A stretch of 64,000 nt of DNA. It comes from Cladosporium halotolerans (Eukaryota). The stretch's first letter is position 1, and the number at the start of each line of letters is the position of its first letter. Where the stretch lies: NCBI RefSeq assembly GCF_011745625.1, contig NW_027191496.1, positions 1-64,000 of the forward strand, in the 5' to 3' direction. Of this stretch, positions 55,002-59,684 are shown in pieces. The translations under genes and the position numbers were made by a program. The notes beneath the pieces are model-generated. The model saw only the letters and a list, made by a program, of their open reading frames with translations, searched no databases and was not told where the DNA came from.

Positions 55002-55447
55002 AGTGCTTCATGAGTCAGAGAAGAAACCCGCCGAGGCGATAACGTAGGAGGAACGCCGTACAAAGTGAGCTGCTCAGACGAAGGATAAGAGGCCCAAAGC
55101 CTGAATCATCTCGCGACTAGGCTGTAATCTTACGAGGGCTCTGTGAGCGTACATAAAAGCCGCGCCACGGACGTAAGGGGTCCAACGAACAGCCTGTTCA
55201 GGTTGAGTCCTGTGCGAGAGGACGCCCGACACAGGGCAGACACCGGAGGCCTTAATCAAGAAGGGGTTGATCACAATATTGACAAATGAAAGATAGCAAT
55301 GTTCAACTTTTGAATGATTCTCATGGCTCATAGCTATGTGCGACGAATCCGCCGGCGACATTGCAAATAACTCAACGCTTTGTATGCGTCCATCCTCTTC
55401 CTCTAGCCGTGGATAGGGACGCCAACATTTGCCCAATATTCATGCAT

Positions 55448-56687
55448 TCATAGCCTAGCTGGGAATCAGTGTCAGTCGGTGTTCCTGGCACAGCTGCGGC
55501 GGAAGAGACCTACTTAGGCGGGTTGGCAACGAACTCAACACCCTTGGAGATGTTGCCCTTGAGGCCGTCGTAGCAAGCCTGGAGGAGCTTCTTCTCGTAG
55601 TCGTTCGCAGAAGGAATCGGGTTGTGGGCCTGCTTGGCGCCCTCCTTGCCGAGCTCGACGGGAACGGAGAAGTACTCAAGGCCGGTCTCCTTAGCGATGG
55701 CATCACCACCAGGAACACCAGGCAGGTAGACGAAGGTGGGCTCAATGACACCACTCTCTCCGTTGGCAGCCTTCAGAAGCTTCTCAGCGAAGCGGAAACC
55801 GGCGTAGGCCATGGAGAGGGTGGCGGAACCGGCACCATCCTTGGCCTTGACGACCTCGTCACCGCCAAACTGGACACGGTTGGTGAGGGCGTCGAGCTTG
55901 TCGGCGGGGATGTTGACAGCAGGCTTAGCCTGGCTGAAGAGCGGGACGATAGTCTCGCCAGAGTGGCCACCAATGACCGGGATAACGGTCTTGGCCGGGT
56001 CCTTCTCGCCAGTGATGCCCTGGACGAAGGTCTCGGCGCGGACGACGTCGAGGGTGGTGACACCGAAGAGCTTCTGGGGGTTGAACTTGTTGGCCTTCTT
56101 GAGGACCTCAGCAGCGATGGGGACGGTGCTGTTGACGGGGTTGGAGATGACGAGCACGTAGGCGTCAGGGCAGAACTGGGCAACGCCCTCAATCAGGCCC
56201 TTCACGATGCCGGCGTTGATCTTGAAGAGGTCGTCGCGGGTCATGCCAGGCTTGCCTGAGGGTATATTCTTAGCTCTTGTATCGGCAGATAGCGGGGTAC
56301 CGTGATGGCTGGTAGCTTACGGGGAATGCCAGCGGGGATGACAACGATGTCGGCACCGGTGAAGGCCTTCTTGAGGCCATCGTCGGCAGGGAGGAAGCCC
56401 TCGATCTGGGCGACAGAGGAGATGTGCGAAAGGTCGGCGGCGACACCAGGGGTGTTCACGACATCGTAGAGGGCGAGCTTGTCAACGAGCGGGCAGGCCT
56501 TGAGGAGGAGGGACAGCGGCTGTGACGAGGTGTCAGTATTTATCAATTCCAAAGCTATCCACCTTGTGACTGTGCTTACCTGTCCGATACCACCAGAGGC
56601 GCCGGCGACGACTGTTCGCGTTGAAGGTTAGCTCGCAATTGAGTCAGTGAGGGGATGGGTCGGTAACCCCGCACCTGCTTTGACCAT
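55448..56687 (-). CDS. MDH2: NAD-dependent malate dehydrogenase, cytosolic/peroxisomal type; introns 56612-56674, 56520-56579, 56256-56320 and a terminal intron from 55513 to 55459 or 55455
   Basis: [64 protein letters not shown]; no mitochondrial presequence. Confidence 0.95.
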
Positions 56688-57799: not shown

Positions 57800-58870
57800 T
57801 TAGTGTTCCGAATCACCGAACGCGTGATCTTCGCCAGCCAGCATTCGCGGAAGGTAGTACTTCATGTTTTCGTAAACGAGGAAGGTCACACAGGTAGATG
57901 GGAGGACCCTTATAAGGTTAGGGCCGAGTCTGCGATGGACATGTGTCAGCAAAGGCTAAACCGACAGCCATCTGAGTCGGAAAACAAACCCTCTGTAGAA
58001 ACCAGTAAGACCCTCATTCCTCCACACCTGCCTGATCACATCCGTAGCTCCGGTGTATCTGTTGCTCGCATCGTAGGTTTGTAGACGTGCCCGCACGACT
58101 TGGTAGGGATAAGTGATGCTGCCGGCGAACATCTTGCTCGCGGCACTAAGATAAAGGTAGTCCAAGTTCGTCAATCCTTTCTTGCCGCCGGTCCGCGACA
58201 TGCCCCAGTGATTCTTCAAATTCTCGTACGCCATGAATTGAATCGCGCCATGGCTCACACCAAACAACGAAGGCAGCAGTCCGCGATAGAAACCTCTGAT
58301 GCCCTCTGTGCGGTAGAGCTCGTATGTGCCGTGGGAGATCGAACGGTAAGCGCCAGGAGAGTTCCGCGCCGTCGACAACATACGCGTCTTGATTACCCAA
58401 ATTGGATTTGTAAAGACAGCAGTCAGGATTCCACTGACTCCCGATGCAAGGAAATAGTCGCTTGAGCGTAAAGCTTTCTTCCCCTCAGACCCTCTTGCTG
58501 ATGCAATCAGGTCCTTGATGTTGCCATACCACATGAAATATAAGCCCCAACTTATGCTATTTCCGATCATGTTTGGCATCAGCCCGCGATAGAAACTGCG
58601 CACGACCTGCGCCGAGTCCTTGACAACGCCATGCCCGTGTAGTCCCTCGTGCCAGGCCTCGTTTGCGATCTGGCGGATCACGCGCCAGCTGTTGCCGGGC
58701 CGAGTCTGCGAACTGTTTTCGATTTGTAATCGGGTCTTTACGACGTCGAAAGGGTGGACAGCCAGAGTTGAGACGACGCCTGCAGTGAAGCCAGCGGTCG
58801 ACTCTACCAAGGACGGCGTGAGGTAGACTGACGGCTGCCGCCCTTCGAGTGGAGGGTAGACCCGCGGCAT
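57800..58870 (-). CDS. FLX1: Mitochondrial carrier, FAD/folate transporter type; intron 57930-57989
   Basis: Three Px[DE]xx[KR]-type repeats: HPFDVVKTRLQ, NPIWVIKTRM, YPYQVVRARLQ (W and Q variants typical of Flx1/SLC25A32). Confidence 0.85.
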
Positions 58871-59684
58871 CCCTGCGGCGGCGGAGGTGGAGGTCGAAAT
58901 CGTGGCGGTGGTCTCGTAGGTTGTCGCACGATCATGTTGAGTCGGTCATCTTCGCATCGCTGCTGTGTCTGCCAGCCGAGGGAAAGTGGAGAGCGAATGC
59001 GGGAGAGCGGGTAGTGGATGGTAAGACTGGGAGATGTCTTAGCGAACGCCGTTGACCGACAGATTGGAGCTGGAGATCAAGGCGCCACGCGTGGGGAGCG
59101 TGGGGTAATGAAATTTGATGGATGATTAATCAAAATTTAGCCTGCATTTGATTGACATCAAGTGATGAGGAAGGAAGATTTGCGAACGATCTTGCGGAAG
59201 ACTTGAAACAACCCGACTGTGCAACTACTCCATTGGCTCAAGATTGGCCTAGATCGTGGCAGTATGAGAGTGATGGTATACTCTACACTACAATCGCACG
59301 GACGTTGTCGCTCCAGACTCCGTCCAGGCCCACCCTCACTGACATATTGATGAGATGAATCGAGACGATGCTGCAATTGTGGTGACACAGGGTAATCCGG
59401 AGCTCATATGTACGCAATGTCAGGTCCATTCCCTCGACACTTTCCTGCAACGACAGAACAACAAGAGATGGTACTCATGCAGATGGGCTTTCACTTGACG
59501 TTCCTCTCCTATATACAGCGCCCTTTCCGGGCAATATTTCCATACGAATTCGGCATGCTTTTCCTCTTCCCTGAAGCCTCTGCCTTATATCTCCCACAAG
59601 CGTGCCTTCTGACACCCGTGGACTAAGTACTCCCAAACGCCGCGCCTACGCACTATACATGCTGCCCCCGGCAAGTCTCATCTT

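Follow-up and report, generated by a model that had tools for sequence, protein, structure and literature searches.

Organisation of the malate dehydrogenase locus

The window, i.e. the whole stretch of 64,000 nucleotides that was analysed, carries on its minus strand a gene for an NAD-dependent malate dehydrogenase (MDH). Its large exon (55514-56255) encodes the C-terminal 247 residues of the enzyme, and the in-frame translation of 55510-56253, designated P0001, matched the Pfam families Ldh_1_N (2.3e-18) and Ldh_1_C (1.4e-38). In BLASTP, P0001 is 100% identical over the local alignment to P0002 of Cladosporium halotolerans, an NCBI model of 329 residues which has no presequence and terminates with ..ANPPN; the last residue is lysine in P0001 and asparagine in P0002. 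According to both the sequence and P0002, the N-terminus begins at the Rossmann motif, and one of the top BLASTP matches carries the source name 'Malate dehydrogenase, cytoplasmic'. Judged by its predicted product, the gene is that of a presequence-free ('cytosolic-type') NAD-malate dehydrogenase of a Cladosporium, which belongs to the MDH2/MDH3 orthogroup and is not the mitochondrial enzyme. The exon model is as follows, where X1, X3 and X4 denote RNA runs described below and a slash separates the two positions joined in their contigs.

56675..56687, minus strand: MDH exon 1, with the ATG at 56687-56685, encoding MVKA plus the first base of the next codon; joint 56611/56675 in X1, X3 and X4
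56580..56611, minus strand: MDH exon 2, with the start of the Rossmann GxGxxG motif; joints 56611/56675 and 56519/56580 in X1, X3 and X4
56321..56519, minus strand: MDH exon 3; joints 56519/56580 and 56254 or 56255 to 56320 or 56321
55514..56255, minus strand: MDH exon 4 (large exon), whose final two bases are the AA of the terminal Lys/Asn codon; supported by P0001, Pfam and BLASTP
from 55458 (proximal acceptor) or 55454 (distal acceptor), minus strand: last MDH exon; from the sequence, with an RNA joint for the proximal acceptor
55200..55447, minus strand: 3' untranslated region; RNA-type contigs run to 55314 (X1), to 55326 (X4) and past 55200 (X3)

The X3 contig with the spliced 3' end of the MDH gene has a length of 1339 nt, 936 nt of which lie beyond 55200, and represents either a long 3' untranslated region or run-on into an adjacent transcript that may be convergent. 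An open frame of 329 residues (57956-58945), located upstream of the MDH gene and on the same strand, contains repeated motifs of the mitochondrial carrier type (..HPFDVVKTRLQ.., ..NPIWVIKTRM.., ..YPYQVVRARLQ..), the family being assigned by eye.

The terminal intron, its tandem acceptors and the predicted C-termini

Read on the minus strand, the MDH frame ends GCC AAC CCG CCT AAG TAG. A donor, AA/GTAGGT, is formed by the G of AAG (55513) and the following TAGGT; it interrupts the last sense codon between the second and third bases and overlaps the stop codon of the unspliced reading. The acceptor region, CCCAG/CTAG/GCTATGA, contains two AG dinucleotides located 4 nt apart, a proximal one at 55460-55459 and a distal one at 55456-55455. 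The features of this region are:

55510..55512, minus strand: TAG stop of the intron-retained reading (..ANPPK-stop), inside the donor GTAGGT
55459..55513, minus strand: terminal intron with the proximal acceptor, 55 nt, GT..AG; contig joints in X1, X3 and X4
55471..55477, minus strand: candidate branch point GACTGAC, with the A at 55472; from the sequence only
55469-55465, minus strand: second candidate branch point CTGAT; likewise from the sequence
55455..55458, minus strand: CTAG spacer; with proximal splicing its C completes AAC (Asn) and its TAG is the stop, and the AG of the same TAG is the distal acceptor
55448..55454, minus strand: G CTA TGA, the contribution of the last exon to the coding sequence with distal splicing; it completes Lys and adds Leu and the stop TGA (55450-55448)

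We take GACTGAC to fit the fungal branch consensus CTRAY. Three C-termini are predicted from this arrangement. Retention of the intron gives ..ANPPK-stop. Use of the proximal acceptor removes an intron of 55 nt and joins AA to C in an exon starting at 55458, so that an Asn codon is followed directly by TAG (..ANPPN-stop). Use of the distal acceptor removes 59 nt, and in the exon starting at 55454 AA plus G specifies Lys, followed by CTA for Leu and TGA (..ANPPKL-stop). The latter product would be one residue longer than the cytosolic ..ANPPN form and would end in the tripeptide PKL, a predicted C-terminal type-1 peroxisomal targeting signal (PTS1). When the donor was joined by script to each AG located 30-260 nt downstream, all three tails were recovered. 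An earlier note on this DNA had described the donor, branch point and acceptors at 55513, 55459 and 55455 and had proposed the same three C-termini; its coordinates all match the sequence, and each of the tails was reproduced by the enumeration. As the stop codon is located at most 9 nt from the last exon junction in both spliced forms, neither of them would be expected to undergo nonsense-mediated decay.

Read-through of the stop codon was considered as another source of a PTS1 and was rejected: the in-frame extension past the TAG ends with ..HTKR, which is reached after 46 further codons, the read-through TAG itself being counted first, and which is no PTS1.

Splicing of the terminal intron in RNA contigs

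At least half of the gene's sampled words are contained in 20 of the 24 public runs listed, and four runs (X1 to X4) were examined in the form of assembled contigs. A junction of 55514 with 55458, which skips 55 nt with the borders CT..AC (GT..AG on the gene strand), is present in one contig each of X1, X3 and X4, i.e. in three of the four runs examined, which derive from three studies; all three upstream MDH introns are also removed in the contigs of these runs. These joints in RNA contigs of three runs establish the terminal intron and identify the proximal CAG as the acceptor in use. Consistent with this joint, a Logan-derived protein (P0286, from a contig of 1238 nt) ends with ANPPN. The fourth run, X2, is unspliced, with 14 of 22 pieces being 95-99% alike; it is DNA-like sequence of a close relative and carries no splice information.

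No contig of X1, X3 or X4 is located inside the terminal intron, and in the two bins that cover the intron the depth corresponds exactly to their exonic share; since contigs drop rare variants, the absence of intron-retained contigs in these runs is no evidence against minor forms. For the same reason, the contigs of the four runs examined, from which the distal junction 55514/55454 is absent, do not tell whether the distal acceptor is used. No member ending with ..PPKL is contained in the protein's 90% cluster, all four members of which were inspected.

Conservation of the hidden Lys-Leu-stop reading

Metagenome contigs were scanned with an alignment of 78 homologues, which yielded 80 loci, and those with the ..NPP.. 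tail of the orthogroup were kept. Loci lacking an ..NP(P/S).. tail were left out as paralogues or distant MDHs, as were L020 and all higher numbers except L030, L031, L033, L036, L038, L040 and L077; L008, L018 and L040 have too little DNA behind the stop and were left out of the counts. Contigs devoid of internal introns were regarded as mRNA-type (L002, L003, L004, L005 and L009) and treated separately. The genomic-type set comprises 17 sequences, namely the window and 16 loci with enough downstream DNA, where L016 and L017, which are identical over the compared region and gave the same outputs, were counted once.

An AA/GT donor at the stop codon together with an acceptor that reads Lys-Leu-stop or Lys-Met-stop was found in 14 of the 17 genomic-type sequences (the window, L001, L006, L007, L011, L012, L013, L016, L030, L031, L033, L036, L038 and L077), corresponding to 13 of the 16 related loci when the window is set aside. 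A fifteenth sequence, L015, arrives at ..NPTKL-stop via a longer last exon, and in L010 and L014 no acceptor leading to Lys-Leu-stop or Lys-Met-stop was found behind the stop. When the downstream sequence was shuffled 2000 times per locus, an acceptor reading K(L/M/I)-stop arose in 1.9-8.1% of the trials per locus; for the window, where the 300 nt behind the donor were shuffled, the rate was 4.9%. The earlier note had suggested looking for the acceptor layout in relatives, and what is kept there is an R-YTN-stop behind an acceptor, with the count of 14 of 17 given above.

All six Leu codons (CTA, TTA, CTT, CTC, CTG and TTG) occur among the Lys-Leu-stop readings, the stop codon behind the reading is either TAA or TGA, and intron lengths lie between 59 and 253 nt. 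As Leu codons, stops and intron lengths vary, it is the reading that is conserved and not the DNA, and the predicted hidden PTS1 is in this sense conserved in the relatives. Among the contigs of mRNA type, two (L004 and L005) have been spliced at the proximal site and retain N-TAG-A-CTG/TTG-stop; the tail of L003 is ..PPQKL-stop, and L002 does not fit the layout.

Different acceptor arrangements

Tandem acceptors with an N-TAG spacer are not confined to the window and were also found in four related genomic loci, one of them represented by L016/L017:

L006: CAG/ATAG/ATTATAA
L016: CAG/ATAG/GCTTTAA
L077: CAG/GTAG/ACTCTAA
L031: TAG/ATAG/GCTGTAA

We propose that these loci and this Cladosporium represent one arrangement, in which the spacer would serve both as stop codon and as splice site. 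In a second proposed arrangement a single far acceptor, present in L001, L011, L030, L033, L036 and L038, would compete with intron retention; it comprises the Sordariomycete-like loci L030, L033, L036 and L038 in addition to L001 and L011. For L033 the closest named proteins, with 94-95% identity, are those of the Sordariomycetes Verticillium, Diaporthe, Neurospora and Fusarium.

In L007, L012 and L013, one AA/GT donor is followed by a tandem pair of acceptors at 49-60 nt and by an acceptor for KL-stop at 150-159 nt, the latter in a conserved context, AG/RYTATGAA. The tandem pair of L007 and L013 reads K-stop and KM-stop, and the acceptor about 100 nt further on gives KL-stop; these two loci would form a third arrangement with two successive PTS1-making acceptors, for KM-stop at about 53-60 nt and for KL-stop at about 150-159 nt. 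L012 differs in that its distal tandem site leads to KMSATS-stop, which is not a PTS1, so that only the far KL-stop acceptor fits. Genes of the L007/L012/L013 type may, as far as their sequences indicate, encode two alternative peroxisomal tails. The three loci have in common a tail of the type ..TNIETG.SF..NPPK, which is also found in the Cladophialophora protein P0135; in a homologue search with L012 the best named matches were about 85% identical, and the tail motif was shared only with P0135.

Public protein models of the homologues

Among 163 homologues centred on Dothideomycetes and Lecanoromycetes, 115 end with K, 19 with Q, 2 with N and 5 with x(K/R)(L/M/I). Of 119 homologues centred on Sordariomycetes, 82 are modelled with a terminal K and 32 with a terminal KL, which means that gene predictors already land on both forms of the same gene. 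The K end of most public models (115/163 and 82/119) corresponds to the retained-intron reading. Behind the ..PPQ ends (19/163), a CA/GT donor with a longer last exon may be hidden.

A protein of Neurospora intermedia (P0169) with the source name 'mitochondrial precursor' starts with MVKAVVAGAA, has no presequence and ends with ..AHNPPQKL; for this paralogue the name looks wrong. In four distant MDH contigs with 46-72% identity (L009, L019, L021 and L022), the open frame itself ends with ..NPSKL, ..EASKL, ..EPAKL and ..AAAKI, respectively, so that these fungi either possess an intronless PTS1 or were sampled as spliced peroxisomal mRNA.

Relation to known systems

Cryptic PTS1 motifs generated by alternative splicing or stop-codon read-through have been reported for fungal glycolytic enzymes and for animal MDH1 and LDHB (Freitag 2012; Stiebler 2014, PMC4207609). 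As in those cases, an abundant NAD-dependent enzyme of the cytosol would here gain, in a minor isoform, a C-terminal PTS1 that is invisible in the annotated reading frame; the reported examples differ in that they use TGA-CT read-through or other splice patterns. For the splicing of MDH in filamentous ascomycetes, our literature search yielded, besides the study of Kabran (2012), only that of Hurtig (2020).

In Yarrowia lipolytica, MDH2 (YALI0E14190g) is described as having 3' splice sites 4 nt apart that lead to the C-termini PAN, found in the cytosol, or AKI, found in peroxisomes, as localised with fluorescent fusion proteins; of the yeasts compared there, Y. lipolytica is given as the only one with this event (Kabran 2012, PMC3372373). 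The parallel that the earlier note had drawn to this gene, with acceptors 4 nt apart and a cytosolic and a peroxisomal MDH, agrees with that report. Both genes encode a presequence-free MDH, both have a last intron that splits the final AA/N codon, and in both the proximal site leads to an Asn followed by the stop (PAN in Yarrowia, PPN here), with the distal site 4 nt further on giving a product one residue longer (AKI and PKL, respectively). No intron-retained contig was seen in X1, X3 and X4, which is again as in Yarrowia. The spacer reads UAGCUAG in Yarrowia (PMC7491326) and CAGCTAG here, the proximal acceptor being UAG in the former and CAG in the latter. Whereas for Yarrowia the localisation and its dependence on the carbon source are reported as demonstrated, the Cladosporium gene is known from its sequence and from RNA contigs.

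For the MDH of Aspergillus fumigatus, three mRNA forms detected by RNA-seq are reported (Hurtig 2020, RNA 26:1464, PMC7491326): the form with the retained intron is the major and annotated one, splicing at the proximal AAG leaves the protein as it is with retention, and a distal UAG, located 4 nt downstream, adds one residue and creates a putative PTS1. The Cladosporium gene resembles this gene of another filamentous ascomycete in the donor overlapping the annotated stop codon, in the distance of 4 nt between the acceptors, and in the additional residue with a putative PTS1 provided by the distal one. In contrast to A. fumigatus, where the retained-intron mRNA is the most abundant, only the proximal-spliced form is represented in the contigs here, and proximal splicing, which leaves the protein as in retention in A. 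fumigatus, here replaces the terminal K by N. In the same account, the splice design of MDH is deduced to be ancestral to Saccharomycotina and A. fumigatus and more than 590 million years old, with losses in individual lineages, such as that of the proximal site in Lipomyces and that of retention in Yarrowia (Hurtig 2020, PMC7491326).

With respect to the tripeptide itself, mNeonGreen-PKL is reported to be peroxisomal in Histoplasma, so that PKL is sufficient as a PTS1 in another filamentous ascomycete, and for human, yeast and Penicillium the tripeptide appears in a list of functional PTS1 variants; these reports bear out the view expressed beforehand that PKL is an accepted variant. The principle of a splice-made cryptic PTS1 has already been published for Yarrowia and Aspergillus, and the present case adds no new principle.

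Proposed mechanism and alternative explanations

We consider it probable that one transcript with two acceptors supplies two enzymes, the proximal acceptor a cytosolic MDH ending with ..ANPPN and the distal acceptor, used to a minor extent, a peroxisomal MDH ending with ..ANPPKL. Most of the interpretation given in the earlier note is supported; that a single gene would supply both pools is its proposal. According to this proposal, the spliceosome would remove the last intron at the first AG (CAG, 55459) in most transcripts, giving ..PPN and the bulk of the cytosolic enzyme, a route that is observed as far as the mRNA. In the minority of cases, splicing would instead proceed to the AG at 55455, 4 nt downstream, by which the frame is shifted by one and ..PKL is created; both the conservation of the reading and the two published cases point to such use in this species. 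Pex5 would then read PKL as a type-1 peroxisomal targeting signal and import the ..ANPPKL form, which in the peroxisome would reoxidise the NADH from beta-oxidation and serve the glyoxylate cycle, as suggested by Mdh3 of Saccharomyces cerevisiae, for which peroxisomal NADH reoxidation and a role in the glyoxylate cycle are described as established in reviews.

Several points were counted against this proposal, namely the lack of a distal junction in the contigs and of a ..PPKL member in the protein cluster, L010 and L014 with no suitable acceptor, the misfit of L002, the KMSATS end in L012, the Q ends of 19 of 163 models and the proline at position -3 of the tripeptide, which makes for a rarer form of PTS1. 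In an alternative reading, which we regard as unlikely, the intron would be constitutive, only the first AG would be used, and the enzyme would be purely cytosolic (..PPN), with the Lys-Leu-stop left as an inherited but unused relic. Only the proximal junction is represented in the contigs of three runs, in the NCBI model and in the Logan transcript-type protein, the Lys-Leu-stop reading has apparently disappeared from two loci (L010 and L014), and the loss of a form in a single lineage has a published precedent in the proximal site of Lipomyces and in the retention of Yarrowia (PMC7491326). On the other hand, rare variants are dropped from contigs by construction, the G CTA TGA frame is intact behind a 4-nt CTAG spacer that is the same as that of Yarrowia (in UAGCUAG), and the Lys-Leu-stop reading has been kept in both close and distant relatives.

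Still less probable is that use of the distal site is occasional splicing noise and that peroxisomal MDH comes from a separate paralogue bearing a PTS1 or from piggy-back import. The latter is known for S. cerevisiae Mdh2, which is imported together with Mdh3, and other fungi in the metagenomes encode SKL, AKL or AKI directly (L009, L019, L021 and L022); in Yarrowia, however, the spliced PTS1 form is reported to be the peroxisomal enzyme (PMC3372373), and since the Leu codon varies synonymously while the Lys and the stop are invariant across lineages, selection on the KL product is indicated. It is very improbable that the PKL reading arose by chance, simply because a TAG stop adjoins an acceptor: the 4.9% of window shuffles (300 nt downstream) that yield a K(L/M/I)-stop acceptor would allow it for a single locus, but 14 of 17 genomic-type sequences are positive as against 2-8% per locus by chance, and the mechanism is described for two other ascomycetes (PMC3372373, PMC7491326).

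Beyond this species, we lean towards the view that a splice-made peroxisomal tag of the 'cytosolic' MDH is near-universal in filamentous ascomycetes, that it is achieved by several lineage-specific arrangements, and that most public models miss the tagged form.

Significance

What is new here is a Dothideomycete instance, which is Yarrowia-like in its Asn end and in the absence of retained-intron contigs, and a first look at the spread and the variants of the hidden Lys-Leu-stop reading in filamentous ascomycetes, by which the published picture of two to three species is widened to several classes. Routine gene models hide the tagged form, as 115 of 163 homologues end with K and only 5 of 163 with x(K/R)(L/M/I), and the survey should be of use for annotation pipelines and for the prediction of peroxisomal proteomes. 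In the NCBI model of this species (..PPN) nothing is corrected; a predicted second product is added to it. The proposed distal form would explain a peroxisomal malate/oxaloacetate shuttle in a fungus in which no annotated malate dehydrogenase has a visible PTS1, and, if the lineage-specific arrangements are as proposed, the cytosolic Asn-end form is made by splicing in this Cladosporium, so that the balance between the two acceptors could be the regulated step.
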